This document shows positions 4,173 to 43,500 of a DNA stretch of 64,000 nucleotides, one piece after another. The notes under the pieces are model-generated. The model searched no databases, was not told the origin of the DNA, and worked only from the letters and a program-made list of their open reading frames with translations. This DNA comes from an uncultured Spirochaetota bacterium (GTDB lineage Bacteria > Spirochaetota > Spirochaetia > SZUA-6 > Fen-1364), in the NCBI GenBank assembly GCA_963745235.1, contig CAVUXE010000091.1:1-64000 (forward strand), read 5' to 3'. Both the position numbers and the translations under genes were made by a program. Positions within the stretch are counted from its first letter, which is position 1, and every line of letters begins with the position of its first letter.

Positions 4173-5789
4173 ATGAAAAAAGGAGTCTTCACGCTCCTCA
4201 CTCTGTTTGCCGCGACCCTCGCATTCGGCCTCCAGGTGGACAAGGATGAGCTCAACAAGGGCCAGGGCACCAACATCGTTTTCGTCAACTACGTGGGCCC
4301 GCACACCACCATTGATACCCTGGAGCAGATCCTGGGGATTGGCCAATCCCTGGGCCGGGGCCTGGGAGACAAGCCTGCCGAGCTTTCGTACAACGGCAAG
4401 TACCGGCTGATTCACGCCGTGGGGGCTCCCGAGGGCCAGAAGCTGGACGCTGACATCTTCATCATCGAAGCAGGCGCGGAGGTGGATGACGTCCTGAACA
4501 TCATGCGCATGGTGAGCGGATACCTGCAGGCCGCATATGCCTATTCGCCGGCGGACGCAATGGTGCTTGCGCGGTTCGTCGTGTACTACAACGCCGTCTT
4601 CCGAGGAGACATGAAATATTTCGGGGGGGTCTACAAGACCATCGTCATGAACAACGTCTCGGCGGACAACGCTGGAATCGCCACAACGTACTCGGATTGG
4701 CCGGGAAAGACCCGGATGCTGATTCCCCTCCTGGGCACCGAAAAGGGAAATCTCAACGCCGTGGGCGCGGGGCAGCTCACCAGCCCCCGGGTCGTTCAGA
4801 ACCTCCAGCAGCAGCCGGGCAAGGCGCTTCCCGAGCGCAAGCAGATCACGGAGCTCCAGCAAAGGGGTGTGGAGCAGGGACAGCAGAAGCTGGAGCAGCA
4901 GCAGGCCCAGCTGGAGCAGCAGAAGAAGGAGCTGGGCACACAGCAGCAGCAGCTTGAGAAGTCGAAGCAGGAGGCAGCGCAGGCGCAGGCCGCGGCGGCC
5001 GCCCCGGGAGCCACGGAGCAGCAGAAGCAGGCTGCCGCCCAGCAGCAGGCCCAGGTCCAGCAGCAGGAGCAGGCGGTTCAGTCCCAGCAGCAGAAAGTGC
5101 AGCAGCAGGAGCAGGCGGTCTCGCAGCAACAGCAGCAGCAGGCTGCGAGCCAGCAGTCCGTCCAGCAACAGAGGGCCGGCATTGCGGCGGACCAGCAGGC
5201 GCTCATCCAGCAGAAGCAGCAGCAGGCTGCCGCCCCTGCGCAGCCCGCGGCGCAAGCGGCGCCTCCGGCCTCGGTGCAGGCGCCGGGCCAGGTCTTGTTT
5301 GTCTATGACCTGGGGGAAGCTCCGGATCACCTGGGAAAGCTCGTCCTGATTGACAGGGTTTCCGGAAAGCTTCTTGCACAGTCAGACCTGAACTCCGTGC
5401 GGGGAAGGACCTACGTGACCGTTGGAAAGGTGATCGTGGTTGCCGCGGGCCGAACGGACCGCAACGGGGCAGTGAAGCTGGTGGCGGTGGACCCTGCAAG
5501 CCTGGCGGTGCAGCAGCAGGGCAAAGACAACCTTGTGCCTGCCAGCTACCTTGCGGCCGCGGAGGGCTCCGTCTACGCGGTTCTCGATTCCGGACACGGG
5601 GCCTTCCTGGGCAGATTCGACCAGGCACTCGCCCTGCAGGCGCAGTCGGAGCGCGCGGTCGACCCATATACCTACATTACGGTCTCAGGGACGGAGGTGT
5701 TCGTCCAGGATGATCAAGGCAACATCCTGATCCTGAACAAGGACGACTTGAAGGAGAAAAAGAGAGCGGCGGGCCAGCCGCCGACATGA
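4173..5789 (+). CDS. P83/100-family spirochaete protein with Gln-rich coiled-coil linker
   Basis: Signal peptide; VDKDEL..IVFVNYVGPH..IDT..QI.GIG and YYNAVFRGD..WPGKT motifs resemble the Borrelia/Treponema P83/100 N-terminal domain. Confidence 0.8.
   Translation: MKKGVFTLLTLFAATLAFGLQVDKDELNKGQGTNIVFVNYVGPHTTIDTLEQILGIGQSLGRGLGDKPAELSYNGKYRLIHAVGAPEGQKLDADIFIIEAGAEVDDVLNIMRMVSGYLQAAYAYSPADAMVLARFVVYYNAVFRGDMKYFGGVYKTIVMNNVSADNAGIATTYSDWPGKTRMLIPLLGTEKGNLNAVGAGQLTSPRVVQNLQQQPGKALPERKQITELQQRGVEQGQQKLEQQQAQLEQQKKELGTQQQQLEKSKQEAAQAQAAAAAPGATEQQKQAAAQQQAQVQQQEQAVQSQQQKVQQQEQAVSQQQQQQAASQQSVQQQRAGIAADQQALIQQKQQQAAAPAQPAAQAAPPASVQAPGQVLFVYDLGEAPDHLGKLVLIDRVSGKLLAQSDLNSVRGRTYVTVGKVIVVAAGRTDRNGAVKLVAVDPASLAVQQQGKDNLVPASYLAAAEGSVYAVLDSGHGAFLGRFDQALALQAQSERAVDPYTYITVSGTEVFVQDDQGNILILNKDDLKEKKRAAGQPPT
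4850..5230 (+). repeat. CAG-rich low-complexity tract encoding poly-Gln coiled coil
   Basis: Repeated cagcagcag/gagcagcag runs in frame with ORF 4173..5789. Confidence 0.85.
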
Positions 5790-7870: not shown

Positions 7871-8917
7871 TCACCCGCGGAGGTCAGGGTTCAGAGAGTC
7901 CTTCAGCTTCTGCATGAGCTCGTCTTCGCTCATCTCGTGTTTGTTGATGAACTGCACGGTCCCGATCTGCAGCTTCATCCCCTCGGACAGCTCGACGGGC
8001 TGGAGGTTGACCACCATGATGGCCTTGTTCTCGCTGGAGGCGAGGTTGATCTCGTTCCTCACGTTGCGGGACTCCATGGCCTGCGGGCTCAGGAACACCA
8101 CGAAGAGCTGGCAGCCGGTCAGCGCCCTGCCGACCTCTTCCGGCCACTCGTTGCCGGGCTCTATCCCTTCGTCGTACCAGACCCGATAGCGGGAGTCAGC
8201 CAGCTTCTTGATGACGCCGAAAACCTCGCGCATGTTCTTGTGGGAGTAGCTGGCAAAGAGATACGGCTTTGAGCCGCTGTATGCCTCGATGGGAGGCTTG
8301 ACGGCCGGCGCCAGGCGCGATGCGAGGCGGCGAAGCGAGAAGCCGCGCCGGGAGACGGCGGCGGAGGGCGCCTTGGGAAACCGTGGGGCCGCGGGTGCAG
8401 CGGCCTTGCGCTTCTTTCGAGCGGGAGCCTTCCGTCGAACGGGCGCCCTGCGCCGGGCGGGCCCCTTGCGGCGAACGGCGGTCTTCCGGCGGGCGGGCGC
8501 TTTGCGGCGGCCCGCGCTCTTGCGTCGGGCAGTGGTCTTGCGGCGAGCCACGGGGCGGCGACGTGCGGTTGCCTTTCGCCGGGTAGCCTTCCTTGCCTTT
8601 CGCCGCGCCGGCTTCCTTGCCCTTCGTTTTGCGGGCTTCCGTGCTCTTCCTCTGGCGGGCTTCTTCGCTTTTCGCCGCGCGGGCTTCTTCGCGCCCCGGC
8701 GGGCCGGTCGCTTCGCCGCGCGCCTGGCGGTCTTCCGGGGGCGCCGCGTCTTGCTTCGCTTCACCGCCCGCCGGGCGGTCTTCCGTGCCGGTCGCGCGCG
8801 CTTTCGCCGCGCTTTTGTCCGCTTTGCCGCGGAAGCCCGCTTCGTCGTGCCCCTGCCGGTCCCCTTGCGCCGGGAGGCAGTCTTCTTTTTCTTCTGTTTC
8901 TTCCGTGTGGTCGCCAT
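7871..8917 (-). CDS. TIR-domain protein with N-terminal Lys/Arg-rich histone-H1-like tail
   Basis: C-terminal ~140 aa PYLFASYSH..VWYDEGIEPG.EW..FLSP..S.NVRNEI is a bacterial TIR with the putative catalytic Glu; the first ~207 aa are K/R/A/P/T repeats with no acidic residue. Confidence 0.88.
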   Translation of the reverse strand: MATTRKKQKKKKTASRRKGTGRGTTKRASAAKRTKARRKRARPARKTARRAVKRSKTRRPRKTARRAAKRPARRGAKKPARRKAKKPARGRARKPAKRRARKPARRKARKATRRKATARRRPVARRKTTARRKSAGRRKAPARRKTAVRRKGPARRRAPVRRKAPARKKRKAAAPAAPRFPKAPSAAVSRRGFSLRRLASRLAPAVKPPIEAYSGSKPYLFASYSHKNMREVFGVIKKLADSRYRVWYDEGIEPGNEWPEEVGRALTGCQLFVVFLSPQAMESRNVRNEINLASSENKAIMVVNLQPVELSEGMKLQIGTVQFINKHEMSEDELMQKLKDSLNPDLRG

Positions 8918-8921
8918 TTCC

Positions 8922-10856
8922 CTACCCTACTTCCGTCCTGCGTTTGATGTGGTAGATGGGGTAGCTCCCGAAGCTCTTCGGCAGCACGATGACCCCGACA
9001 TAGCGGCAGTCCAGCCGGTTCCTTGGATCAGTGAGAAGAAGCGCGGCAAAAGATTCACTGGCGTAGACGTTCCCCGGGCTTGTGATGGGCTCGATGCGCG
9101 CGGCCTGGTTCACGTGAAAGCCGAAGACGTTCAGCCGGTTCAGGAGCGGCTCCTGGACGCAGTACACGGGCCCCGCGTGGAGCCCGATCCTGACGCTCAG
9201 GGACCCGGGCAGGTTGAGACGGGCCCAGTCGGTCTTGCGCACCATGTCCCGCAGGGAAATTGCGCACTCGGCCGCCATCAGGGGATCATCGAACGCCAGG
9301 CAGATGGCGTCCCCCCACGTGTTCTTGTACAGGGGTTCCGCGCCAGAGGCTCGAAGCGTCCGCGATACGCCGGTGAGGAATCCCTTGACGTACGCGGGAA
9401 CCTGCTCCTCCGACAGCTTGCTGTATCCCACCATGTCGGCAAAGAGGATGGCCACCGTCTGGCGGCCTTTCCCGGACCCCTCGTGGTGAGGAACGGCCCC
9501 CGAGGAATCCCGTGCCTTTCCGCCACGTGATTGCACCCTGGCGGTCAGCGGATTGATGACGACATACGGGAAGCCGGTCTGCTGCCACAACGTGACGCAC
9601 TCCGATGTCCCGCCCGGCTTCCCGTTGTGCTTTCCGTCCCACACCGCAACCAGGAGCGTCTCGGTCTCCAGGAAACGACTGCGGAGGATGGCCTTGCCCA
9701 TGATGAGCTGGTTTGCGTAGGAGAACAGGATCTCGTTGCCGCTGCGATATCCCCCCCGGGTGGCTTGCTCGACCATCGAGCCTTTTGCAAGGACAGCCCG
9801 CGCGCGTTTCTTCCACGCGGCTCCGGCGAAGCTCACGCTGGTCTCGAAGAAGTCCTCCTTGTCGAAAGGAAGCACAACGTTGCTTTCTCCCCCGCGGGCA
9901 AGGAGGCATTCGTGAAACAGGATGTCGGCTCCGCAGGCAGCGGAGGCGTAGCCGATGCTCGCGTTCAGCTTCGAAAGAAGCGACGCAATCCGCTGCTTCA
10001 CAAGACCGGCTGAGGACTGCGGAAAATGGGGGTTCCCCTGGTCCGGGGCGTCGATCATATGGCCGGTGAAGGCGATAACCGGGGGGACCCGCAAGGTCTC
10101 CAGCACGCTCGGGTCGACCGGGGTATAGCGCGCCAGGAGCGAAAGCTGCCGCCGGGTGCTTGCCAGGTTGGAATAGTTTCGAACGCTTCTTGCCCGGGCG
10201 AGCCGGTAGAACTTTGCCGCCCGTTCCTGGCGCCCCAGGAGGACGAACGCCTCCGCCACCGTTGCCATGATCCAGTAGCCGCGCTGGGAAGGGTCTTTCA
10301 GGAGATCCGCGCAGATCCGCAGCACCTGCCGGGCAACCCGCCGGGAGAGGTCCTTGTCTCCCATGATCAGGCTCAGGCTTGCCGCGTTGATCCCGGAGTA
10401 GTACCCGCGGCTCCTGCGAAAGGCCCCGAGATACAGCTCGCGGGACTTCGCCAGGTGGGGATGTTCCGGCGCCCCCTCACCCTCTATCAGCCACATCTCC
10501 TTGTAGACCCTGCCCAGGATCCCCAGGGTCTCCTCGTCGTAGTGGCCGTCTTTCATCAGCCGGGTGAGCAGGTCCTTGGCAGTGAGAAGAAAACCGCACT
10601 TGATCAGGGAGAGGCAATAACGCTGCGTGATCAGGAGGTGCCCGGGGAAAACGCGCAGCCCTTCCCTCAGGATGTCGTGCGCAAACATCGACTGCCCCAG
10701 GGTGTCCGCCCTCTCTCCGAGACGGAGAAAATAGTACGGGTCCTTTGTCCAGAGCGCCTCGTCCTTCGAGTCCCACAGGACATGGATGACCTGGCCGAGC
10801 CGGCTCCTGTTGCGTTTCAGGAAACTGTCGAAGCGATCCCTGTTCTGTTCCTTCAT
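8922..10856 (-). CDS. TPR (DUF4071/TRAFs-binding-like) + SLOG-like + class III nucleotidyl cyclase
   Basis: ETLGILGRVYK..YYSGINAA..YWIMAT.AEA helical region; AFTGHMID..SAACGADILF..VVLPF..AVWDG..GGT Rossmannoid; ILFADMVGYS..WGDA..RIGLHAGPV..VNQAARIE cyclase. Confidence 0.85.
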   Translation of the reverse strand: MKEQNRDRFDSFLKRNRSRLGQVIHVLWDSKDEALWTKDPYYFLRLGERADTLGQSMFAHDILREGLRVFPGHLLITQRYCLSLIKCGFLLTAKDLLTRLMKDGHYDEETLGILGRVYKEMWLIEGEGAPEHPHLAKSRELYLGAFRRSRGYYSGINAASLSLIMGDKDLSRRVARQVLRICADLLKDPSQRGYWIMATVAEAFVLLGRQERAAKFYRLARARSVRNYSNLASTRRQLSLLARYTPVDPSVLETLRVPPVIAFTGHMIDAPDQGNPHFPQSSAGLVKQRIASLLSKLNASIGYASAACGADILFHECLLARGGESNVVLPFDKEDFFETSVSFAGAAWKKRARAVLAKGSMVEQATRGGYRSGNEILFSYANQLIMGKAILRSRFLETETLLVAVWDGKHNGKPGGTSECVTLWQQTGFPYVVINPLTARVQSRGGKARDSSGAVPHHEGSGKGRQTVAILFADMVGYSKLSEEQVPAYVKGFLTGVSRTLRASGAEPLYKNTWGDAICLAFDDPLMAAECAISLRDMVRKTDWARLNLPGSLSVRIGLHAGPVYCVQEPLLNRLNVFGFHVNQAARIEPITSPGNVYASESFAALLLTDPRNRLDCRYVGVIVLPKSFGSYPIYHIKRRTEVG

Positions 10857-10918
10857 GCCACGGCCCGGCGGCGGACTGTCAGGACACTATATCTGGTTTT
10901 TCCAGCGCGGACCATCTC

Positions 10919-11767
10919 TCAGGTCTTCGGCTCAGGGGAAAAGCTTACCGTGTTCTTTCCCCTCACTTTCGAGGAGTACATCAGGTCGTCCACCTGCTTG
11001 AGAAGCTCATCCACTCCCAGCTTCGGATCGGCGACCGTCAAAGCCCCGATGGACACGGTGACCGGCCAGCCCCGGCGGCCCATTTCGAGGAGCAGGCTTT
11101 CCCGCAGCTTCCCGATTGCCGGCTGTGCGGCTCTCTCATCCGCTTCGGGGAGGAGGAGCGCGAACTCGTCTCCGCCCAGCCGCGCAACGATGTCGGTGCT
11201 GCGCGCATGGCTCCGCATGACGGACACGACGGTCTGGAGGAGAAGGTCGCCCGTGTTGTGACCCTGGGAATCGTTGACCGCCTTGAAATTGTCCAGGTCG
11301 ATATACGCAAGTGTAAACGGCCGTTTGTACCTGCGGGAACGGTCGATCTCGGACCGCAGGATTTCAAGGAAAGATCGCGCGTTGGCCGCGCCCGTGAGAT
11401 GATCGATGCGGGCAAGGGATTTTTCATGCTCGATGGACCTTCGCAGCGCGGAAAAAAGGAGCGCCGTGGTGCTCAGAATGGCCGCGCGAGTTCCCGCGTG
11501 CCAGAAGATGTAGAAGGGGCTCGAGTACTTCTGTCCGGCCAGCAGGTCGGCTGACACCCACACCGCCGCGCTGAGCAGGGCCCCTGCCAGCCCGGGCCAT
11601 CTTCCGGTCGTCCACGCCACAAGGGAGACGGGGACAAGGTACAGGAGGGACAGGGACAGCTCGTAGCCGGTCGCGTAATCAAGGACGCCGATGGCCAGGA
11701 TGAGAGAGTAGCCCACAAGGAGGGCGGTGGATGTTCGCCACTGTGTGAGATCCTTTGGCGGCTTCAT
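10919..11767 (-). CDS. membrane-anchored diguanylate cyclase (GGDEF)
   Basis: About four TM segments, then DLDNFKAVND..GH..GD and RSTD..ARLGGDEF. Confidence 0.92.
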   Translation of the reverse strand: MKPPKDLTQWRTSTALLVGYSLILAIGVLDYATGYELSLSLLYLVPVSLVAWTTGRWPGLAGALLSAAVWVSADLLAGQKYSSPFYIFWHAGTRAAILSTTALLFSALRRSIEHEKSLARIDHLTGAANARSFLEILRSEIDRSRRYKRPFTLAYIDLDNFKAVNDSQGHNTGDLLLQTVVSVMRSHARSTDIVARLGGDEFALLLPEADERAAQPAIGKLRESLLLEMGRRGWPVTVSIGALTVADPKLGVDELLKQVDDLMYSSKVRGKNTVSFSPEPKT

Positions 11768-12175: not shown

Positions 12176-12216
12176 CAACTTCTGCCTTGCGCGAACCCAT
12201 GATTCATCGTACTCTT

Positions 12217-12408
12217 GGATGCGTTGCAGGAGAGCCCCCGACCCTGCGGGGAAGGGGCACCGAAGGGGCAAGCCCCGAGTGGGGGGCGAATCTCTCAGGT
12301 ACAAGGGACTGCAATGCGACGAATCCTGGAGAGCTCCGCGGCGCCGCGGACACCGAAGGGGACAAATCCCTCTGACGGAGGGATAATCTCTCAGGTCAAA
12401 AGACAGGA
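12217..12408 (+). ncRNA. tandem glycine riboswitch (two aptamers)
   Basis: Two copies of GGAGAG...CACCGAAGG.(G/A)CAA...AATCTCTCAGGT; P1 GCGTTGCAG/CTGCAATGC; leader GGAT complementary to the linker end ATCC (GACGAATCC). Confidence 0.94.
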
Positions 12409-12445
12409 GGAAGGCAGAGCCGACCGGCGCGCCTTCCTCTTTTTT
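12407..12445 (+). terminator. intrinsic terminator, expression platform of the glycine riboswitch
   Basis: GAGGAAGGC...GCCTTCCTC stem followed by TTTTTT; the 5' arm overlaps the 3' end of aptamer 2. Confidence 0.8.
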
Positions 12446-12470
12446 GTGCCGGTGGCGGAAGGAGAACCCG

Positions 12471-13769
12471 ATGGCAGTGCTGTCGAAACGGATCGGGCTG
12501 CTGGACACGGAGAACGCATTCAAGATCGGGCCGAAGATACGCGCAATCGAAGACCAGGGGAAGAAGGTCATCAAGTGCAACCTGGGTGAGCCCGATTTCC
12601 CGGTTCCGGGCTTCATCAAGGAAGAGGTCAAGCGACAGATCGACCTGGACAACACCCACTACTGCGATCCTCAGGGCATCCTTCCCCTGCGGGAGGCGGT
12701 CGCCAGGCATTTCCGTGAGACGCGGGGCATTGACGCTGACCCGGGAAGGGTCGTCGTCTTTCCGGGAGGAAAACCGCCCATTGGCCTGAGCCAGGAGGCC
12801 TACTGCGATCCGGGGGACGAGGTGATCTACCCCAGCCCCGGGTACCCCATCTATGAGTCGTTCACGCGGTACGTGGGCGCCCGGCCCGTGCCGGTTCACC
12901 TGAAGGAAGAGTCGGGATTCTCCCTGTCCGGAGCGGACATCGCCGCTGCAATCACCCCGCGGACCAGGATGATATTCCTCAATTTCCCCTCCAATCCGAC
13001 CGGGGGGGTCGCCTCGAAGGAGCAGCTTGCAGACATAGCGGGCGTCATACGGCGAAAGTGCTCCCCCGACGTGCGAGTCTATTCGGACGAAGTCTATGAG
13101 CACATCATCTTCGACGGGTCTCGCCACCAGAGCATCATCTCCATTCCCGGCATGGAGAAGATCACGGTGCTGGTCAGCGGGGCGTCGAAAAGCTTTTCCT
13201 GGACGGGTGGCCGCATCGGGTGGGCCCTTTTCCCGACGGTGGAAGAAGCCGAGACATTCAAGAACCTCAACATCAACTACTTCTCGTGCGTTTCCCCCTA
13301 CAACCAGGAAGGATCGCGGCTGGGGCTCGAGTCGCCGCTTGCGCGGGAGGCCATCCGGGGGATGGTGAAGGCGTTCCAGGAGCGCCGGGACATGATTGTG
13401 CCCGGACTTTCCTCCATTCCCGGCGTCCGCTGCCAGAACCCCGGGGGCGCCTTCTACGTGTTTCCCAACGTGAGCGGCATGTGCGAGCATCTGGGGGTTT
13501 TCGACGCGTACAAGGCCCTCTCCCCTGATGTTCGCGCTCTGACCACGCCGTCCACCCTGCTGCAGATGTTCCTGCTCTTCGAGTACCAGGTGGCGACCAT
13601 GGACAGGAAGTCCTTCGGAAGGATCGGGACGGAAAGCATGCACTACCTCAGGATCTCCATAGCCACTGACCTGGAGTCCCTGAAGCAGGCGGTGGCGCGC
13701 ATCCGGGAGGCCGCCCAGGACGTGAAAGGATTCGCGAAGTTCATGGAGAAAGGGCAAAACCTGTACTGA
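12471..13769 (+). CDS. PLP-dependent aminotransferase class I/II
   Basis: LGEPDF, NFPSNPTG, SDEVYE, SGASKSFSWTGGRIG (PLP lysine), GAFY; SD AAGGAG before ATG 12471. Confidence 0.92.
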   Translation: MAVLSKRIGLLDTENAFKIGPKIRAIEDQGKKVIKCNLGEPDFPVPGFIKEEVKRQIDLDNTHYCDPQGILPLREAVARHFRETRGIDADPGRVVVFPGGKPPIGLSQEAYCDPGDEVIYPSPGYPIYESFTRYVGARPVPVHLKEESGFSLSGADIAAAITPRTRMIFLNFPSNPTGGVASKEQLADIAGVIRRKCSPDVRVYSDEVYEHIIFDGSRHQSIISIPGMEKITVLVSGASKSFSWTGGRIGWALFPTVEEAETFKNLNINYFSCVSPYNQEGSRLGLESPLAREAIRGMVKAFQERRDMIVPGLSSIPGVRCQNPGGAFYVFPNVSGMCEHLGVFDAYKALSPDVRALTTPSTLLQMFLLFEYQVATMDRKSFGRIGTESMHYLRISIATDLESLKQAVARIREAAQDVKGFAKFMEKGQNLY

Positions 13770-13781
13770 CGGGAGGATGCC

Positions 13782-16133
13782 ATGGGAATCTCTTTCGCTC
13801 CTCGCAGGGGGATCTTCATCAACATCCAGGATGAAGCGAGCCCCGCGGTCTCTTCAGAAGAGCTTGCGGTCCTCGAGAGGCTGGACCTCATCTACCGGTC
13901 CCTGTGCGCCATGCTGTACAACTACGTCCCCACCTCGGGACACCCGGGCGGCTCAATATCTTCCGGCAGGTTCGCCGCAAGCCTCGTGTTCGACGCAATG
14001 GACTATGACGCCTCAGACCCCGACAGGGAGGATGCAGACCTCCTGGTTTACGCCGCGGGACACAAAGCGCTCGGGCTGTACTCGCTGTGGGCCATCCGCA
14101 ACGAGGTGCTGCGCGTCGGGGCCCCTGCCCTGCTCTCCCCGAATGAAAGCCGCCAGCTGCGCCTGGAAGACCTTCTGGGCTTCCGCAAGAACCCCGCCGG
14201 AATGACCCCCCTGCTCCGGAAGCTTCACGCAAAAGCCCTGGACGGGCATCCGACCCCGGCGACACCGTTCGTCCGTATTGCGACCGGCGCTTCCGGGGTC
14301 GGGCTTGCGGCCTCCGTCGGGCTTGCGTTCGGCGCGCTTGACCGCTACGGCCCCAACGCTCCGCGCATCCACGTGGTGGAGGGAGAAGGAGGCATGACCC
14401 CGGGAAGAGTGTCAGAAGCGATGGCCGCGGCCGGAACCTCGTCCCTTTCGAACCTGTTCCTCCATGTGGACTGGAACCAGGCCTCTATAGACTCGAACCG
14501 CGTGTGCAGGAACGGCGATATGCCGGGGGAATACGTCCAGTGGAACCCCATGGAGCTCGCCTGGCTGCACGACTGGAACGTCATCCAGGTCCCTGACGGC
14601 ATGGACTTGCTTCAGATCATTGCGGCGCAACGGAGGGCAAAGACCATAGACAACGGCCAGCCGACTGCAATTGTCTATCGGACCGTCAAAGGCTGGCGAT
14701 ACGGCATTGAAGGCCGGGCATCCCATGGTGCCGGGCACAAGCTGTGCGCTGACGGCTATTTCGACGCCCTGCAGCCTCTTCTCGAAGGGACGCGGATCCA
14801 GCTCCCCCGCTGCACCGCGGAAAACCAGAGATGCGCCGGCGGCAAGGAGGCAGGGGTCATGGATCACTGCTTCTGGGAAGCGTTGTCCCTCATTCGATCT
14901 GAGATCGAGAAACCGGGTCCCTTGGTGGGCATGCTGTCCGGGAAGCTCCTCCAGGCGCGGGACCGCCTGGAGGGCAGGAAGCGGGCCCCGCGAAGCAACG
15001 CGCCCGACGTAACGGCGGTCAATTCAGTTGCCAGGTCCCGAGGGAAAACGATGCCGGAAGAGCTCATGCTGCCGCCGGGCGGCATAACGACCCTCCGCGC
15101 GGAGCTTGGCCGGGCGCTGAACTTCTACAACAAGGCAAGCGGCGGCGCCCTGCTTGCAGCCTCCGCTGACCTCATGGGCTCGACGAGCAGCAACACGATA
15201 GGCGCCGGGTTCCCGCAGGGGTTTTTCAACGCGAGCGCGAACCCCGCGGCCAGGCTCCTTTCCCTGGGCGGGATCTGCGAAGATGCCATGGTTGCCACCC
15301 TCAGCGGGATCTCCGCGTTCGGGCACAACATCGGGGTCGGGTCCTCCTACGGAGCCTTTCTTGCCCCTCTGGGCCACGTGGCGGCGAGGCTGCACGCAAT
15401 TGGCGGCCAGGCCAGGCGCGCCGTCACCGGCGAGCCGTACAACCCCATGATCGTCGTGTGCGCGCACGCAGGACTGAAGACCGGGGAGGACGGGCCAACC
15501 CATGCGGACCCGCAGCCGCTCCAGCTCCTTCAGGGCAACTTCCCGCGGGGGACGATGATCACCCTGACGCCGTGGGACCCCCAGGAAATCTGGTTTCTCC
15601 TGGCAGCGGCGCTCGTGAAGCGGCCGGCCGTCATTGCGCCGTTCGTAACGCGGCCCAATGAAACGGTGATCGACCGAAAAGCGCTGGGCCTCGCGCCCGC
15701 GCACAGCGCGGCATCAGGCGTCTACAAGCTGAAACCCGCAAAGGGCAGGAGACCCGACGGGACTGTCGTGCTTCAGGGAAGCGAAGTTGCGTATGCTTTC
15801 GTCCAGGAAACCCTTCCCCTCGCGGAGAAGGAAGGGCTGGACCTGGAGGCCTACTACGTGGCCAGCGCGGAGCTCTTCGACCTGCTCCCGGCCGCGCAGA
15901 AGGAGAAGATCTACCCCCAGAAGACGGCTTCCGCGGCAATGGGGATCACCGGATTCACCCTGCCAACCATGGACCGCTGGATAACGGGCGAAAGAGGACG
16001 GGCCGCCACGCTGTATCCCTTCCAGAAGGGGCACTACCTGGGAAGCGGCCAGGCGGACAAGGTCATGCGGGAGGCGGGGCTCGACGGCGCAAGCCAGCTC
16101 AAGGCAATCAAGAGGTTCATCAAGACCCGATGA
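13782..16133 (+). CDS. transketolase-like ThDP enzyme (divergent)
   Basis: SGHPGG, AGH, GHP, GEG-x28-N ThDP motif, SADL, GICE, GEDGPTH; SD GGAGG, 12 nt after the upstream stop. Confidence 0.85.
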   Translation: MGISFAPRRGIFINIQDEASPAVSSEELAVLERLDLIYRSLCAMLYNYVPTSGHPGGSISSGRFAASLVFDAMDYDASDPDREDADLLVYAAGHKALGLYSLWAIRNEVLRVGAPALLSPNESRQLRLEDLLGFRKNPAGMTPLLRKLHAKALDGHPTPATPFVRIATGASGVGLAASVGLAFGALDRYGPNAPRIHVVEGEGGMTPGRVSEAMAAAGTSSLSNLFLHVDWNQASIDSNRVCRNGDMPGEYVQWNPMELAWLHDWNVIQVPDGMDLLQIIAAQRRAKTIDNGQPTAIVYRTVKGWRYGIEGRASHGAGHKLCADGYFDALQPLLEGTRIQLPRCTAENQRCAGGKEAGVMDHCFWEALSLIRSEIEKPGPLVGMLSGKLLQARDRLEGRKRAPRSNAPDVTAVNSVARSRGKTMPEELMLPPGGITTLRAELGRALNFYNKASGGALLAASADLMGSTSSNTIGAGFPQGFFNASANPAARLLSLGGICEDAMVATLSGISAFGHNIGVGSSYGAFLAPLGHVAARLHAIGGQARRAVTGEPYNPMIVVCAHAGLKTGEDGPTHADPQPLQLLQGNFPRGTMITLTPWDPQEIWFLLAAALVKRPAVIAPFVTRPNETVIDRKALGLAPAHSAASGVYKLKPAKGRRPDGTVVLQGSEVAYAFVQETLPLAEKEGLDLEAYYVASAELFDLLPAAQKEKIYPQKTASAAMGITGFTLPTMDRWITGERGRAATLYPFQKGHYLGSGQADKVMREAGLDGASQLKAIKRFIKTR

Positions 16134-16151: not shown

Positions 16152-16181
16152 TTGACTGTCGGAGGAGGCGATCGCTATACT
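16152..16181 (+). promoter_or_regulatory. sigma70-type promoter of the sugar ABC operon
   Basis: TTGACT-18 nt-TATACT. Confidence 0.65.
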
Positions 16182-16238: not shown

Positions 16239-17174
16239 ATGAGCAAGAAACTGGTTCTGCTCCTCGTGCTGTCCCTGGCGCTTCCGCTGGCCGTTTTTGC
16301 GGGGGGACAGAAGGAGGCGGCTCCGGCGGGCGGGATGCTCAGGATCGGCCTGACGTTACCGGGACTGCAATTCCCGTTCTTCGTGACCATGAAGAAGGAC
16401 TTCGACCTGGAGGCGTCGAAGCTGGGGGTGGACGTCATTTACGTGGACGCCCAGAATGATTCCGCCAAGCAGCAGGCCGCCGTGGAAGGGTTCATCTCCC
16501 AGAAGGTGAGCGGAATCCTCATCTCCCCCATGACGGTGGACTCCCTCGTGCCGGCAATCGAGGAAGCGGCGAAAGCCGGGATCCCCGTTGCAACCGTTGA
16601 CCGCAAAGCCAACACGGACAAAGTGCTCGTGCACGTCGGCGCGGACAACGTTGAGGGCGGCCGCGCGGCAGCGCGCTACATTGTGAAGATGCTGAACGGC
16701 AAGGGCAACATCATCGAGCTGGAAGGGACCCCGGGAGCCTCTCCCGCCATCGACCGCAAGAAAGGCTTCGATGAGGTGATTGCCCAGAACCCCGGCATGA
16801 AGATCCTCGTCAGCCAGACCGCGCAGTTCGACCGGGCCAAGGGCCACGACGTCATGGAAAACCTCATGCAGGCGTACCCGAACTTTGACGCGGTGTTCGG
16901 CGCCAACGATGAGATGATCATCGGGGCCATCGAGGCGATGTCCGCGGGCGGCATCGATCCTTCAAAGAAAGTGACGGCCGGCTATGACGCAACTCCCGAC
17001 GCGTTGACCTACATCAAGGAGGGAAAGCTGGGGGCAACGGTGGACCAGTTCCCTGGGAAGCAGGCGGCTCAGGCTCTCGACTACCTGGTCAACTACATCA
17101 AGAGCAAGACCATGCCTCCCCAGCCGGTGATCTACATCCAGCCGCAGACTGTCACCAAGGATACCATGATGTAG
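16239..17174 (+). CDS. monosaccharide ABC transporter substrate-binding protein (RbsB-like)
   Basis: Signal peptide ending FAGGQKE; PFF, DAQND, VGADN, ANDEM, GYDA motifs; SD AGGAGG. Confidence 0.9.
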   Translation: MSKKLVLLLVLSLALPLAVFAGGQKEAAPAGGMLRIGLTLPGLQFPFFVTMKKDFDLEASKLGVDVIYVDAQNDSAKQQAAVEGFISQKVSGILISPMTVDSLVPAIEEAAKAGIPVATVDRKANTDKVLVHVGADNVEGGRAAARYIVKMLNGKGNIIELEGTPGASPAIDRKKGFDEVIAQNPGMKILVSQTAQFDRAKGHDVMENLMQAYPNFDAVFGANDEMIIGAIEAMSAGGIDPSKKVTAGYDATPDALTYIKEGKLGATVDQFPGKQAAQALDYLVNYIKSKTMPPQPVIYIQPQTVTKDTMM

Positions 17175-17205: not shown

Positions 17206-17233
17206 GGCCGACGCTTGCGAGCGTCGGCCTTTT
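17206..17233 (+). terminator. hairpin/terminator between binding-protein and ATPase genes
   Basis: GGCCGACGCT-TGCG-AGCGTCGGCC followed by TTTT. Confidence 0.65.
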
Positions 17234-29138: not shown

Positions 29139-30494
29139 TCAGACGACAAGCATTATCTGAATGTCGCAGACATTGGTTCCGGTCGGTCCCGTCCTGAAGA
29201 GCCCGCCGAGCTTCGCCAATAGCGTGTAGGAATCGTTTTCCCGCAGCGCTTCGGGAATGCGCATCCCTTCGGCATGCGCGGCGCGGGCCATGGAGGGAAG
29301 GGCATACCCGCCGGCCGCGTCCGTGGGTCCATCCTCCCCATCGGTGGAGAAAGACAGGAAATGCGCGCCCGCAAGACGAGCCGGCTCGTTCTCCATCTCC
29401 CAGAGGAACGCTGCGGCCATTTCCTGGTTTCTCCCCCCTCTCCCCTTTCCTCGAAGCGTGACCGTCGTTTCACCGCCTGACAGGATGCAGGCAGGCCGCC
29501 GGCAGGGGAGATCCGAAGCGGCCACGTCCTTTGCCACCGCGGCCAGCACCCTGGCTGCCTCACGAGCCTCGCCGGCCAGGTGAGAGGTAAGGATGATCGG
29601 GTTGTATCCCAGGCGCCTCGCTTCCGAGGAGGCGCTTCGCAGGGCCAGGAGGTTGGTGCCCGCGAGGATGTTGGAACAGGAGAAAAACTCCGGCGCTCCC
29701 GGCTTGGGAGTCTCCGGGACCTTCCCCTCCGCGCCTGCACGGAGGAAGTCCATGACGGCAACCGGGAGGGTGGCCGCGATCCCGCGGTACTCGAGGAAGG
29801 AGAGGGCCTGTCCGTAGGTGGTCGTGTCCGGGCTGGTGGGCCCCGAGGCGATGGTCTGCAGGTCGTCACCCACGACATCGGAGAGCACCAGGTTGACAGA
29901 GGTTGCCGGGGAGATGTGCCGGGCCAGCCGGCCGCCGGCCAGCATGAGGAGGTGCTTGCGGACGCAGTTGAGCTCGGCAATCGGCGCGCCGCAGGCAAGG
30001 AGCTGCCGCGTGGTCTCCTGGATATCTTCCAGGGTGACCGGGGGCCGCTCATCGAAAAGCGGCGCTGCCAGGAGAGCGGAGCCGCCGCCTGAGATGAGCG
30101 TGATCACCAGCGTCCGCGCATCCGCTCCATCTGCAAGCGCCGCGATCATGCCGGCCGCGCGCACGCTGTCTTCATTGGGCACCGGATGCCCGCCGGGGGT
30201 CGTGCGGATCCTTTCCAGGGGAACTTCGTGACCCCGCTTCACGACAATCAGCCCCTCGTCGATTCGGGGCCCGAGTGCCTGCTCGACCGCACGCGCCATC
30301 GGCCCGGCAGCCTTTCCGAATCCCAGGACAAGGACCCTGTGAAACCGTGACAGGTCGAAATCCCCGGCCGCATCACCCGTCCCCGCGTGCAGGGTCCCGC
30401 CGCTGATGCGCATGTTCCTGGCAACGATTGTTTGCGGGTCCACGGAGGCAAGGGACGCGAGTGCGATCCTGGGAAGGTCGTCACGGGGTTCCAT
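29139..30494 (-). CDS. glycerate 2-kinase (DUF4147/MOFRL family)
   Basis: GFGKAA, HPVP, LISGGGSAL, SDVVGD..IASGPT, GGETTV..GGRNQE, TDG.DG, TGTNVCD. Confidence 0.9.
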   Translation of the reverse strand: MEPRDDLPRIALASLASVDPQTIVARNMRISGGTLHAGTGDAAGDFDLSRFHRVLVLGFGKAAGPMARAVEQALGPRIDEGLIVVKRGHEVPLERIRTTPGGHPVPNEDSVRAAGMIAALADGADARTLVITLISGGGSALLAAPLFDERPPVTLEDIQETTRQLLACGAPIAELNCVRKHLLMLAGGRLARHISPATSVNLVLSDVVGDDLQTIASGPTSPDTTTYGQALSFLEYRGIAATLPVAVMDFLRAGAEGKVPETPKPGAPEFFSCSNILAGTNLLALRSASSEARRLGYNPIILTSHLAGEAREAARVLAAVAKDVAASDLPCRRPACILSGGETTVTLRGKGRGGRNQEMAAAFLWEMENEPARLAGAHFLSFSTDGEDGPTDAAGGYALPSMARAAHAEGMRIPEALRENDSYTLLAKLGGLFRTGPTGTNVCDIQIMLVV

Positions 30495-30505
30495 GGAGCC
30501 GGGAC

Positions 30506-31243
30506 TTACCCGAGTCGGAAAACGGTCAGCGCCGTCTTCCCGAGGCACCATTCCAGCTCGCTCTCCGACAAGCCGATTGAGCGGTATTTTGCGAGCTCCA
30601 CGGGGATGTTGCTCACCAGGTCGCTGCCGAACATCACTCGATGTGGCCCGAGGGTCTCCACCATCGAGCGCAGATCATACACGGTGACCCACGACGTCTC
30701 CAGGTAGACATTGGGACATTCCCGCGCCGCCACTAGGGCATCCGCGCCGAAAGTCCCGCCGCCGGCGTGGGCAAGCACGATGCGCAGGTCCGGGTATTTC
30801 CTGGCCACGGGGATGCAAAGCGATGGGAGCGCGTTGGGCAGGCCGTTGCCAGTATGGATCATGGCAACGATGTCCAGCTCCTTTGCCAGGCGAAAGAGCT
30901 TGTCAGCCGCGGGATGTGAGGGAGACAGGCAGAAAGCGTTGGGGTGCAGCTTCACCCCCTTGAATCCGAGGTCTTTCACGGTCCACCGGACCAGGGAAGC
31001 ATACTCCGTGTCATCCATGAGGGGATTGAAGCAGGCAAGGCCAAAGGCGCGCCCCGGGTGCTCATCAGCGAACCTCTTGATCCTCTCATGGGCCTTTTTC
31101 TGATCCCGCGCAACGATGCCAGGCTGCAGGACCTGGGACGAAATGCCGTTGTCGTCCATGGCCTTCAGCACGACGTGTTCGGAATCATCCGTCAGAAACA
31201 GGAGATCTTCCCCCAGGTGCATGTGAGCGTCGATGATCCTCAT
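30506..31243 (-). CDS. amidohydrolase_2-family metallohydrolase
   Basis: IDAHMH, GVKLHP, IHTG, LAHAG, FGSD. Confidence 0.88.
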   Translation of the reverse strand: MRIIDAHMHLGEDLLFLTDDSEHVVLKAMDDNGISSQVLQPGIVARDQKKAHERIKRFADEHPGRAFGLACFNPLMDDTEYASLVRWTVKDLGFKGVKLHPNAFCLSPSHPAADKLFRLAKELDIVAMIHTGNGLPNALPSLCIPVARKYPDLRIVLAHAGGGTFGADALVAARECPNVYLETSWVTVYDLRSMVETLGPHRVMFGSDLVSNIPVELAKYRSIGLSESELEWCLGKTALTVFRLG

Positions 31244-31306
31244 GACTCGGACCTTGTTGTATACTGGATACTATCAGGACAGAGCAGCTGTCAAGGTTGG
31301 AGCGTC

Positions 31307-32617
31307 ATGAGAATCGAGCTTGCATACGGCAAAGCACGCCTTTCAGTAAACCTTCCGCAAGGCATCTCCGTGACCGTTGTGGAGCCGGCGTCAGTCCCGG
31401 CGTCACCCGACCCGGTGGATACCGTGCTTGCATCCCTGCGGACGCCCATTGGCTGTCCTGCTCTGCGCCGGACCGTCCGTCCCGCGGATTCCGTGGCAGT
31501 TGTATTCAGCGACATCACCCGGCCGACTCCCAACCGTGAGATCATCCCGCCCATCCTCAACGAGCTGAGGTCTGCCGGCGTGCCGCGGGAAAAGATCACG
31601 CTCTTCAACTCCACCGGCACGCACCGGCTGAACACGCGGCAGGAGCTGGAAGGCATGCTTGGCAGCGAGATTGTCGGCACCTTCCGCATCATCCAGAACG
31701 ACGCGCGCGCGCAGGGACAGCACGTAAAGATCGGTGTCACGACAAGCGGCAACGAGGTGAAGATCCAGAAGGACTTCCTTTCCTGCACGTACAAGATCCT
31801 CACCGGCTTCATCGAGCCGCATTTCTTCGCCGGATTCTCCGGCGGCGGCAAAGCCGTCATGCCCGGCATGGCGCACCTGGATACCGTGATGCGCAATCAC
31901 AGCGCCCGCAATATCGACCACCCCGGTTCGCAGTGGGCAATCCTCGAGGGAAATCCCATCCACCAGGAAGTGAACGAGGCCACGGCCCTCGTGAAGCCGG
32001 ACTTCCTGCTGAATGTCGCTCTCTCCACGGACAAACGGATAACCAGGTCATTTCCCGGTGACGTCGAGGCAGCCTTCCGTGAGGGGACGCGGTTCGTGAA
32101 GGAGAGCGCCATGCGCAAGGTGGAGTCCCTGTTCGACATCGTCCTCACCTCCAACTCGGGCTACCCCCTGGACCTGAACCTCTACCAGGCCGTCAAGGGA
32201 ATGAGCGCGGCGGCCCGGATCACGCGCCCGGGGGGATCGATAATCGTTGCCGCGGAGTGCTGGGACGGGATCCCTGATCACGGCTCGTTCGGAAAGCTCC
32301 TGCGGGAGGCCGGGGATGCTGATGAGCTCCTGGCGCGCATCCGGGCGGACGGGTTCATGATGGATGACCAGTGGCAGGCCCAGATCCTTGCACTCGTCGT
32401 GAAGAAGGCGCACGTCTTCGTCCATGCGGATGGACTGACCCCGCAGCAGATAACCGGTGCAAAGCTCACACCGTGCGGTTCAATCGAGGAGCAGCTGGGC
32501 CGGCTGCTGCGCACGTATGGGGACGCCGCGAGGGTCTGCGTTCTCCCCGATGGCCCGCAGACCGTGCCGTTTGTCGAGATGGCCGCGGCGCCGCGGGCGG
32601 CAGGGTCTCTCACCTGA
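31307..32617 (+). CDS. larA: nickel-pincer-dependent lactate racemase family protein
   Basis: SDITRP, TGTHR, IEPHFFAGFSGGGK, NH, GYPLDLNLYQAVKG. Confidence 0.88.
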   Translation: MRIELAYGKARLSVNLPQGISVTVVEPASVPASPDPVDTVLASLRTPIGCPALRRTVRPADSVAVVFSDITRPTPNREIIPPILNELRSAGVPREKITLFNSTGTHRLNTRQELEGMLGSEIVGTFRIIQNDARAQGQHVKIGVTTSGNEVKIQKDFLSCTYKILTGFIEPHFFAGFSGGGKAVMPGMAHLDTVMRNHSARNIDHPGSQWAILEGNPIHQEVNEATALVKPDFLLNVALSTDKRITRSFPGDVEAAFREGTRFVKESAMRKVESLFDIVLTSNSGYPLDLNLYQAVKGMSAAARITRPGGSIIVAAECWDGIPDHGSFGKLLREAGDADELLARIRADGFMMDDQWQAQILALVVKKAHVFVHADGLTPQQITGAKLTPCGSIEEQLGRLLRTYGDAARVCVLPDGPQTVPFVEMAAAPRAAGSLT

Positions 32618-41717: not shown

Positions 41718-43500
41718 GAGCTATTCGCGTAGCGGCTAATTTTCATTGTGGCAATGATTTGGAGAGAGGCCGGATTTCGATTACCCCGAAGAAGGTAGGC
41801 TTTTCGCAAGATACAGCTTGAGATGCCTGTTTTCCTTGGAAATTGACCCCATTTACAGAAAAAGGCGCCCCTGGCGGTCGCGATCGTGCTACGATGAATC
41901 ATCACAAGCACCGTGCACAAGACCTGGGAGGGGCGCGATGGCAACTATAGCACAAAGGCCGCTGTTTGGGTGGGACCAGATCGAAGCGTTAGGAGACCTG
42001 AAGCGCCTGCGGTTGGTGCTGGAGAATCTGCCCGACGAGCCTGTGGTGAGCAAGCTGGAGCAGGAGCGGGATCGGGGCCGCGACCGATACCCGATCCGTG
42101 CGATGTGGAACGCGTTGATCGCCGGGGTGGTCTTCCAGCATCCGACGGTGGAGTCGCTGCTGCGGGAACTGAGACGCAACGCTCAGCTACGGCAGGTCTG
42201 TGGCTTCCAGCTGATCAAGGGATTGAAGGCAGTGCCGAACTCTTGGGCATTCTCGCGGTTCCTGGCAAATGTCATCAGACACCTGGAATTGATCGAGGCG
42301 ATGTTTCATGCGTTGATTGATCGGCTCACCGAGCTTCTGCCCGACTTCGGCACCAGCCTTGCGGTGGACGGGAAGGCGTTGGCGAGCTACGCGCGAGGCA
42401 AGAGCGAGAAGGAGCACCCGGACGGTCGGGGCGACAGCGACGGGGAATGGGGGATTCACGAGTACCGCGGTACGCACGCCGACGGAACGGCCTGGCAGTC
42501 GGTGAAGAAGTGGTTCGGATATACGATCCATCTGCTGGTCGACAGCCACTACGAATTGCCGGTGAGCTTCTCGGTGACAAAGGCCAACGCCAGCGAGGTG
42601 GTCGAGGCCCACAAGGTGCTGGACCGACTGGAGGAGCAGCATCCGCAGCTCGTCGAGCGGTGCCAGGAGGTGGCTGCCGACCGCGGCTACGATGATGGGA
42701 AGCTGATCTGCAAGGTCTGGGATGAGTGGCAAGCGCTGCCGATCATCGATATCCGCAACTGCTGGAAAGATGGGGAGGCCACGAAGCTTGTCAGCGGGTT
42801 TGAGAACGTGGTCTATGACTTTCGGGGGACGGTGAGCTGCGTGTGCCCGAAGAGTGGCACTCAGCGCGAGATGGCCTACGGAGGATTCGAGCGGGATCGT
42901 ATGACGGTGAAGTATCGCTGTCCCGCCCAGCACTACGGCTACCCCTGTGCAGGGGCCGGGTGCTGCGAGCTGGGCAAGGCGGTGCGCATCCCCCTGGACG
43001 AGGATCGGCGCGTGTTCACGCCCTTGGCGCGAAGCAGCCTGAAGTGGGAGCGCTGCTACGATCGGCGGACGGCGGTGGAGCGGGTCAATAGCCGCCTGGA
43101 CGTGAGCTTCGGGTTCGAGAAGCACACGATTCGGGGACTAAAGAAGATGAGCACCCGTTGCACTCTGGCGCTGGCGGTGATGCTGGCGATGGCCGTGGGG
43201 CGGATCAAAGCCAACCAAGCGGAGTCGATGCGGAGCCTGCTGAAGGCAGCCTGAACGGCGCTCGGCTGCCTGGTCGCCTCCGACGGGGGTCGGGGTAGTC
43301 TGTCCTCAGGGGGCGGGGCCCAGTGCAGCCGGCGCTTCCGCGGAAACGCGCCGGCCTGCCGAAGGTGGTTTTAGGGTTCAGGGAAGGCACAGCGCGGTAC
43401 TCAACCACCCCATAGCCCCCGCGGTAACTTTCGACCTGCTCCTGGCGACGTCCGGTTGGGTGGCCTCGGCGGCTCCCAACGGGCACAGCGCAAATGCCTC
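41718..43500 (+). mobile_element. insertion sequence (~1.78 kb, DDE transposase, IS1182/IS5-like)
   Basis: Flanked by direct repeat GCTC (41714-41717 and 43501-43504; extendable to TCGCTC); imperfect terminal inverted repeats GAGCTATTCGCG / GAGGCATTTGCG (9 of 12). Confidence 0.85.
41938..43254 (+). CDS. DDE transposase
   Basis: GR..YP..AM N-terminal (DUF772-like) region, AVDG, WFGY..H, ADRGYD, Y.RRTAVERVNSRL; SD GGAGG. Confidence 0.9.
   Translation: MATIAQRPLFGWDQIEALGDLKRLRLVLENLPDEPVVSKLEQERDRGRDRYPIRAMWNALIAGVVFQHPTVESLLRELRRNAQLRQVCGFQLIKGLKAVPNSWAFSRFLANVIRHLELIEAMFHALIDRLTELLPDFGTSLAVDGKALASYARGKSEKEHPDGRGDSDGEWGIHEYRGTHADGTAWQSVKKWFGYTIHLLVDSHYELPVSFSVTKANASEVVEAHKVLDRLEEQHPQLVERCQEVAADRGYDDGKLICKVWDEWQALPIIDIRNCWKDGEATKLVSGFENVVYDFRGTVSCVCPKSGTQREMAYGGFERDRMTVKYRCPAQHYGYPCAGAGCCELGKAVRIPLDEDRRVFTPLARSSLKWERCYDRRTAVERVNSRLDVSFGFEKHTIRGLKKMSTRCTLALAVMLAMAVGRIKANQAESMRSLLKAA

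Follow-up and report, generated by a model that had tools for sequence, protein, structure and literature searches.

A Tandem Glycine Riboswitch Ahead of an Aminotransferase and a Transketolase-Like Gene in an Uncultured Spirochaetota Bacterium: A Candidate Step in Glycine/Serine Metabolism

Organization of the Locus

In the genome of an uncultured Spirochaetota bacterium (GenBank assembly GCA_963745235.1), the first 64,000 nt of contig CAVUXE010000091.1, hereafter the window, carry on the forward strand a tandem glycine riboswitch with a terminator-type expression platform, followed by genes for a class I/II (AspAT Ib-like) aminotransferase of 432 aa (AT1, 12471..13769) and a transketolase-like thiamine diphosphate (ThDP) protein of 783 aa (TKL, 13782..16133). 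AT1 starts with the ATG at 12471, 24–25 nt past the T-run of the terminator, and ends at 13769; the ATG of TKL, preceded by GGGAGG, lies 12 nt beyond the AT1 stop codon, and the gene ends at 16133. The spacings given in a preliminary description of this stretch (25 nt from the riboswitch to the aminotransferase gene, and 12 nt between the two genes) are thus correct. That description had also considered independent transcription of TKL, which is argued against by the 12-nt gap with its ribosome-binding site and without a terminator. A possible promoter (TTGCGC, 17 nt, TACTCT) may lie immediately upstream of the riboswitch, at 12187..12215 (+); it is a weak match read by eye, was not reported by a consensus promoter scan, and has a similar motif at the same position in the leader of the nearest related locus (L012).

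The Glycine Riboswitch and Its Expression Platform

The preliminary description had recognized a complete two-aptamer glycine riboswitch, and the Rfam glycine model (RF00504, gathering threshold 32 bits) identifies both aptamers. Aptamer 1 occupies 12217..12321 (+), with 63.4 bits and an E value of 8.4e-11 in a cmscan search at gathering thresholds, and aptamer 2 occupies 12316..12416 (+), with 52.5 bits and an E value of 1.3e-10 when the stretch is scanned alone; in wider Rfam scans aptamer 2 is masked by clan competition and is seen when the region is scanned separately. Both were recovered again in a search of the whole genome, and aptamer 1 reaches 87.4 bits with our own covariance model, R1. 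The tandem variant model RF03166 (glycine-GGAnGA) scores 64.3 bits, under its gathering threshold of 110, so the riboswitch belongs to the standard class. In an RNAalifold analysis of 11 aptamers from the window and from loci L010, L014, L015, L025, and L026, 20 base pairs were found, 10 of them with compensatory changes, and the P1, P2, P3, and P3a helices gained covariation support, which is not fully independent because the aptamers were gathered using the Rfam model. At position 12341, within the P2 hairpin of aptamer 2, an RNA-library contig (X20) and a DNA contig (X2) carry a 3-nt insertion (CGC), a strain variant that leaves the stem intact.

The expression platform (12405..12446, +) comprises a GC-rich terminator hairpin at approximately 12406–12440, followed by TTTTTT at 12440–12445, as read from the sequence. 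The minimum free energy fold of the leader contains this hairpin, formed with bases of the aptamer-2 P1 helix (z = −3.59; none of 200 shuffled sequences is as stable), although a simple terminator scan missed it because its loop is longer than the 3–8 nt limit of the tool. The AGGA common to the 5′ arm of the hairpin and the 3′ strand of aptamer-2 P1 (CAGGA, 12404–12408) bears out the overlap between terminator and riboswitch that had been noticed earlier. Since the P1 3′ strand is shared with a terminator arm, the leader has the geometry of an ON switch. A platform of the same design, with a terminator over aptamer-2 P1, occurs in five other loci (L014, L015, L025, L026, and L092).

The Aminotransferase and the Transketolase-Like Protein

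AT1 matches the aminotransferase class I/II domain PF00155 along its full length (profile positions 2–361 of 361), with 155.2 bits against a gathering threshold of 19.7. Its assignment does not extend to a named function: the best NCBIfam match reaches 222 bits against a cut-off of 617, all 25 listed families (of 63 matched overall) stay below their cut-offs, and AT1 does not exceed the cut-off of an aspartate aminotransferase equivalog such as NF004769. Among solved structures, 5wmh is the top PDB match (E 3.4e-57), and the closest relatives are aminotransferases of the aspartate, prephenate, and aromatic types. The best 120 database relatives share at least 71% identity with AT1, are 407–466 aa long (most of them exactly 432 aa), and bear generic names.

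In Pfam, TKL matches the ThDP and pyrimidine domains of transketolase only weakly (PF00456, 65 bits; PF02779, 45 bits), and it falls far under the transketolase equivalog cut-offs (TIGR00232, 104.6 vs 682.25; NF004559, 142.2 vs 488). All 41 of its PDB matches are transketolases, with E values of 7e-21 or weaker. Neither 1-deoxy-D-xylulose-5-phosphate synthase (DXS, TIGR00204) nor phosphoketolase (XFP) is among its Pfam and NCBIfam matches, and a profile of the TKL family searched against the PDB finds transketolases at 3.4e-21 and DXS chains at 2.6e-4 or worse. The family is very large: 4511 of 7998 scored proteins match at E ≤ 1e-3, and against representatives clustered at 50% identity there are 217 matches at ≤ 1e-30 (mostly fragments) and 2324 at ≤ 1e-3. 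The best 120 relatives are 66–97% identical and 776–822 aa long, and are named “hypothetical protein” at NCBI and “transketolase” at JGI. Across phyla, identity among the best loci is 60–82%.

Aligned to the canonical transketolase of its own genome, TKL gives an hhalign probability of 99.5 and 28% identity over 613 columns. Taking the catalytic histidines, the cofactor glutamate, one aspartate, and four residues that bind phosphate as defining for transketolases, we find their counterparts in TKL at H54, H94, H156, H315, E500, H562, D570, H574, R439, S467, and R624, and each is retained in 53–55 of 55 family members. In the metal motif, E202 takes the place of an aspartate of the genome’s own transketolase, and N232 aligns with an asparagine of that motif. 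P207 stands where the genome’s own enzyme carries a glutamate; R209, beside the ThDP/metal motif, is invariant (55 of 55). An extended linker contains four cysteines (C322, C344, C351, and C363), kept in 46–47 of the 55 members, which may mark a metal site. Because the transketolase residues, including the phosphate-binding ones, are retained, TKL has the appearance of an active enzyme of the transketolase type with the ability to bind a phosphorylated sugar preserved, yet it belongs to a separate family.

The genome (104 contigs, 85.7% complete) holds further members of the superfamily. A canonical transketolase is encoded on another contig, C59 (775.5 bits vs the cut-off of 682.25), along with split transketolase genes elsewhere, and TKL is therefore not the sole housekeeping transketolase, a circumstance on which the preliminary description had made its proposal depend. 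Two more divergent transketolase-like open reading frames (ORFs), at L004:1210–3366 (−, 718 aa; contig C35) and L005:1420–3492 (+, 690 aa; contig C54), reach 277 and 259 bits with NF004559 (cut-off 488) and can be assigned neither to the canonical transketolases nor to the TKL family. Phosphoketolase was considered as a next step, and an XFP_N search of the genome (85.7% complete) gave no match; of six TPP-enzyme matches in a search for glyoxylate carboligase, none is above the cut-off.

One alternative reading of these two proteins is that ordinary functions merely share a switch, with TKL an extra isozyme of sugar-phosphate transketolase and AT1 a general aspartate/glutamate aminotransferase that would redistribute nitrogen under glycine excess. 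Every catalytic and phosphate-binding residue listed above is indeed kept in TKL, and the best matches of AT1 are aspartate and prephenate aminotransferases. Against this stand the canonical and split transketolase genes already present, and the 28% identity of TKL to the canonical enzyme, far under every transketolase cut-off. Together with the gene neighborhoods described in the following sections, where two unrelated aminotransferases are recruited beside TKL and genes of glycine, serine, and glyoxylate metabolism recur, these points make the reading decidedly unlikely.

Conservation of the Aminotransferase–TKL Pair

The pairing of the two genes was compared in the best 80 of 572 confirmed TKL loci; in 13 of the 80, the sequence ahead of TKL is shorter than 1400 nt. 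An AT1 ortholog (51–84% identity) lies 11–109 nt upstream of TKL on the same strand in 21 of the 80, and these 21 loci bear at least eight phylum-level labels, the labels encountered being Spirochaetota, Thermodesulfobacteriota, Krumholzibacteriia, Planctomycetota, Gemmatimonadota, Verrucomicrobiota, Schekmanbacteria, Pseudomonadota, and Acidobacteriota. The conservation of the pair, which the preliminary description had left to be checked, thus extends over many phyla. In four further loci of the 80 an unrelated class-I aminotransferase (AT2, 32–34% identity) lies directly upstream of TKL, and in two more it is convergent, just downstream of TKL; a quick tree places AT2 in a separate clade, split from AT1 by a very long branch. 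The recruitment of two different aminotransferases at the same position argues that TKL handles a 2-oxo acid or an amino acid. Among 46 genomes without a TKL-adjacent AT1, nine carry an AT1 ortholog elsewhere (61–75% identity).

Glycine, Serine, and Glyoxylate Genes in the Neighborhood

The gene context of TKL and AT1 was read from crude ORF calls, with 120 ORFs within 1.7 kb of TKL scanned, of 213 within 3.8 kb. The window genome’s other RF00504 site, on contig C10, precedes gcvT-gcvH. This gcvT riboswitch (L010:1357–1622, −) is also tandem, with a weak second aptamer (29.6 vs 71.8 bits with our own model). In another genome, G030, a tandem riboswitch with a near-identical platform precedes an AT1 ortholog (75% identity) that is followed in order by gcvH, gcvPA, gcvPB, and genes for lipoate-protein ligase (LplA) and dihydrolipoyl dehydrogenase (Lpd); TKL of this genome begins at a contig edge (L013). 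Other unlinked AT1 copies adjoin Lpd and gcvT (L097), Lpd (L098), or lipoyl synthase (L096).

Genes directly beside TKL point the same way. An 883-aa fusion of GcvT with serine hydroxymethyltransferase (SHMT) lies directly upstream of AT2-TKL or of TKL (L023:131–2782 and L053:430–3081), with the gene order GcvT-SHMT, AT2, TKL in L023. The GcvT half of the fusion is above the NCBIfam cut-offs, whereas the SHMT-like half is divergent and below (244 bits vs 335). Contig-cut SHMT-like ORFs occupy the position of the fusion in two further loci (L021:2–583 and L076:2–1501), in the latter 1 nt before TKL. Single cases of neighbors include glutamate dehydrogenase (L017), an amino-acid permease (L028), and a D-2-hydroxyacid dehydrogenase (L045), and xylose-isomerase-like TIM barrels occur near TKL in L033 and L042. 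Taken together, the contexts appear to converge on a 2-oxo acid derived from glycine, serine, glycolate, or glyoxylate. Of the glycine/serine utilization route proposed in the preliminary description, the tie to glycine and serine gains weight from these neighbors, from the GlcDEF-like and Gcl-like genes described next, from the gcvH-gcvP operon headed by an AT1 ortholog, and from the occurrence of the riboswitch before AT1-TKL in two AT1 clades; the substrates of the enzymes stay predictions.

A second set of neighbors suggests glyoxylate, formed from glycine by the aminotransferase or from glycolate by GlcDEF, as the 2-oxo acid. In L020, LarA-, GlcD-, GlcE-, and GlcF-like genes precede TKL on the same strand; in L033, too, TKL is immediately preceded by GlcD/E/F-like oxidase genes, and L032 has a GlcF-like gene. 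The GlcD-like gene scores 530.8 against a cut-off of 567.9 and can be called only GlcD-like, and the same applies to the Gcl-like (glyoxylate-carboligase-like) gene in L029 (724 bits vs 791). With glyoxylate as the intermediate, AT1 would be a glycine:2-oxo-acid aminotransferase, and TKL would remove glyoxylate in one of two ways: glyoxylate could be decarboxylated as a DXS-like donor, with a C1 hydroxymethyl unit going to a sugar phosphate, or it could be the aldehyde that accepts a ketol unit. The effector of the riboswitch is, moreover, glycine itself, and excerpts of PMC2211319 describe metagenomic glycine riboswitches before malate synthase glcB, which also consumes glyoxylate. On the other hand, the GcvT-SHMT fusions beside TKL and the aminotransferase in the gcvH-gcvP operon indicate a serine intermediate, a neighboring Gcl would compete with TKL for glyoxylate, and TKL retains the full residue set aligned to ketol-donor transketolase. 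We therefore treat glyoxylate as a serious rival to hydroxypyruvate, if on balance a rather improbable one.

The pair may also run in the biosynthetic direction, with TKL making a keto sugar (or its phosphate) that the aminotransferase would aminate, glycine serving as amino donor or signal, or it may handle alanine/pyruvate or aspartate/oxaloacetate. The LarA-like racemase genes near TKL in L020 (e.g., L020:1105–2385) are in keeping with such roles. However, no sugar-nucleotide or glycan genes were found in the annotated loci, the contexts are those of cleavage-system, SHMT, and glycolate-oxidase-like genes, and the same aminotransferase heads a glycine cleavage operon, so that we consider a biosynthetic pair very improbable.

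Distribution of the Riboswitch Before AT1-TKL

Our covariance model, built from 11 aptamers and run on the window and the 80 loci (1.04 Mb), matches in the window, in L014 and L015 (both Spirochaetia), and in L025 and L026 only, i.e., a riboswitch stands ahead of the aminotransferase–TKL pair in four of the 80 loci plus the window; a search with nhmmer and short motifs gave the same four loci. All riboswitch-bearing leaders have the terminator over aptamer-2 P1. In a quick tree of AT1 they fall in two subclades, with L025 and L026 basal and the spirochaetes within a clade rich in Thermodesulfobacteriota. Direct Rfam scans of 21 loci (17 AT1-TKL and four AT2-TKL) found no glycine aptamer. In an RF00504 search of 40 related whole genomes approximately 75 of several hundred candidates were scored for each, and its absences were not used.

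The nearest relative, L012, shares 82% identity in TKL and 84% in the aminotransferase. Its leader (5560–5700, compared with 12205–12446 in the window) has approximately 175–180 nt removed between two CAGGAG repeats. The removed stretch corresponds to both aptamer cores, and the terminator hairpin and T-run remain. L012 is a natural riboswitch deletion, which should leave the terminator unopposed.

A Proposed Role in Glycine and Serine Metabolism

Cleavage-system operons are glycine-induced in the cases studied, and from the occurrence of the same platform on cleavage-system genes, together with the geometry of the leader, we infer a glycine ON switch. When glycine is abundant, the tandem riboswitch with its terminator platform would switch the AT1-TKL operon on, alongside the genome’s second glycine riboswitch on gcvT-gcvH. 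AT1 would then turn a glycine-derived amino acid into a 2-oxo acid, most likely serine, made from glycine via the cleavage system and SHMT, into hydroxypyruvate, the alternative being glycine into glyoxylate. TKL would bind the 2-oxo acid, decarboxylate it irreversibly, and pass the glycolaldehyde unit to an aldose phosphate, whereby amino-acid carbon would enter the pentose-phosphate pool. Hydroxypyruvate is a known irreversible ketol donor of transketolases, and as the intermediate it would explain most of the evidence: SHMT fusions make serine, the carboligase together with isomerization gives hydroxypyruvate, and the residue set of TKL is that of a transketolase. The enzymes together would probably constitute an undescribed disposal route for glycine and serine carbon. 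As a whole, a glycine-ON operon in which the aminotransferase supplies a 2-oxo acid for ketol transfer by TKL to an aldose phosphate is the best explanation at hand, and we put its chances of being right and wrong at about equal.

Several points weigh against this explanation. The aptamer-2 P1 and the terminator overlap by only 3–4 nt, so that the ON direction of the switch is predicted mainly by analogy. As for conservation of riboswitch, aminotransferase, and transketolase together, which the preliminary description had expected to be informative, the riboswitch is absent in 17 of the 21 related AT1-TKL loci, including the nearest relative L012. In 37 of the 46 genomes without a TKL-adjacent AT1, which are incomplete assemblies, no AT1 ortholog of at least 61% identity was found, which indicates that TKL does not depend on AT1. 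A sample of 400 further genomes from the phylum yielded no TKL match at E ≤ 1e-100, so TKL is an accessory trait there, probably acquired by transfer. The activities of both AT1 and the TKL family are predicted throughout, and sequence does not discriminate between hydroxypyruvate and glyoxylate; the latter suits the GlcDEF-like and Gcl-like contexts at least as well. Finally, an AlphaFold model of TKL (15-sequence alignment A1) has a mean pLDDT of 51, too poor for a fold search.

A bolder version of the proposed route can be offered tentatively, as a possibility that we would sooner bet against. It would be an undescribed serine/hydroxypyruvate–transketolase shunt, running from glycine to serine (through the cleavage system and SHMT) and on to hydroxypyruvate by transamination, and irreversibly placing the C2 unit on sugar phosphates by means of a dedicated 2-oxo-acid-dependent transketolase. 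Such a shunt could be widespread in uncultured bacteria, mostly from sediment, peat, and soil, could also be fed by glycolate or glyoxylate, and might provide an assimilation branch below glycine where glycine is made reductively.

Organism and Expression

The organism appears to belong to soil and peat environments, as seven DNA runs from five soil/peat studies contain at least half of the sampled words, and runs X1 and X2 cover the window mostly at ≥99% identity. A Borrelia P83/100-family protein and the nearest loci indicate a spirochaete. Three short contigs from RNA libraries of two peat metatranscriptome runs cover 12237–12422 (leader only), 12753–13022 (AT1), and 15806–16061 (TKL). This coverage is weak support for expression, since the libraries may contain DNA and the contigs show neither strand, ends, nor level.

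Neighboring Genes in the Window

Downstream of TKL, a gene for a ribose-type ABC transporter binding protein with a signal peptide begins with an ATG near 16240, 106 nt beyond TKL. No terminator separates TKL from the transporter genes, and their inclusion in the operon was considered. They were judged separate on account of their own promoter-like site (16152–16181, 10 of 12 matches), located between TKL and the binding-protein gene, and because the adjacency is not conserved: in L012, no transporter gene adjoins TKL. A strong terminator-like hairpin (17206–17229) lies downstream of the binding-protein gene.

A glycerate 2-kinase (DUF4147 and MOFRL domains) is encoded at 29139–30551 on the minus strand. 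The preliminary description had raised a possible link with the operon; the gene is on the opposite strand, 13 kb off, with several unrelated genes between, and we find no linkage and do not include it in the unit. A gene of the lactate racemase family (LarA-like) adjoins the kinase (region 29139–32617). The presence of LarA-like genes both here and in L020 may be a coincidence or may reflect a link through 2-hydroxy acids.

Just upstream of the riboswitch, on the opposite strand, three signaling-type genes stand in a row (7871–11767, −), encoding a TIR-domain protein, a protein with TPR-S and adenylate/guanylate cyclase domains, and a GGDEF protein; the trio is syntenic in L012. At the window start, a SAM (S-box) riboswitch (31–140, −; 96.5 bits) regulates a gene beyond the window. 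A DDE transposase (DUF772 and DDE_Tnp_1) at 41818–43254 (+) marks an insertion sequence.

Significance and Comparison With Known Systems

In a full-text literature search, which did not cover the supplementary riboswitch–gene lists of PMC2211319, we found no paper on the TKL family or on the aminotransferase–TKL operon. Excerpts of PMC6944388 mention neither an aminotransferase nor a transketolase among the genomic contexts treated there, and GlyXL/GlyXS, as described in excerpts of PMC13759103, is an unrelated glycine route. The riboswitch itself is a textbook element and its cargo is not, and there is good support for regarding the conserved pair as a candidate for an as yet undescribed step in glycine/serine catabolism or assimilation. 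Among clues to the roles of unknown genes, the cargo of a riboswitch is one of the more reliable, and in this case a ThDP enzyme family that is very large, highly conserved, and unnamed is flagged by a glycine switch and by genes of glycine cleavage. If TKL is indeed 2-oxo-acid-dependent, it would open a new exit from glycine/serine metabolism into sugar phosphates, and a physiological role would be found for a reaction familiar chiefly as a trick of the laboratory, in which hydroxypyruvate serves as an irreversible transketolase donor. TKL would then also be a naturally optimized biocatalyst for C–C bond formation.

Among characterized systems, the riboswitch of the Bacillus subtilis gcvT-gcvPA-gcvPB operon has two aptamers and a terminator competing with aptamer-2 P1, is glycine-induced, and controls glycine catabolism. 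The window riboswitch resembles it in its tandem aptamers and terminator, and the window genome has the classical arrangement before gcvT-gcvH; the cargo in the window, however, is an aminotransferase and a transketolase-like enzyme instead of cleavage-system genes. Glycine riboswitches have also been reported ahead of glcB and serC, with glcB in marine metagenomes (excerpts of PMC2211319). The glcB unit described in those excerpts is similar in that a glycine switch precedes an enzyme consuming a glycine-related 2-oxo acid, and differs in enzyme family and chemistry and in having no aminotransferase.

The canonical transketolase (TIGR00232, EC 2.2.1.1) and TKL share the domain order, the ThDP/metal motif, the catalytic histidines, the cofactor glutamate, and the phosphate-binding Arg/Ser/His/Arg set, whereas TKL is only 28% identical, has approximately 75–120 extra residues, and carries P207, the invariant R209, and the four-cysteine linker motif. 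In the serine cycle and the glycerate pathway, serine is converted to hydroxypyruvate and on to central metabolism by serine-glyoxylate aminotransferase, hydroxypyruvate reductase, and glycerate kinase. The proposed route would likewise transaminate serine to hydroxypyruvate, but with an aminotransferase of class I instead of class V, and with ThDP-dependent ketol transfer and loss of CO2 as the sink instead of reduction to glycerate. The mechanistic precedent for the reaction proposed for TKL is DXS, which belongs to the transketolase superfamily and joins the unit left after decarboxylation of a 2-oxo acid to glyceraldehyde-3-phosphate, even though no DXS model is significant for TKL itself.

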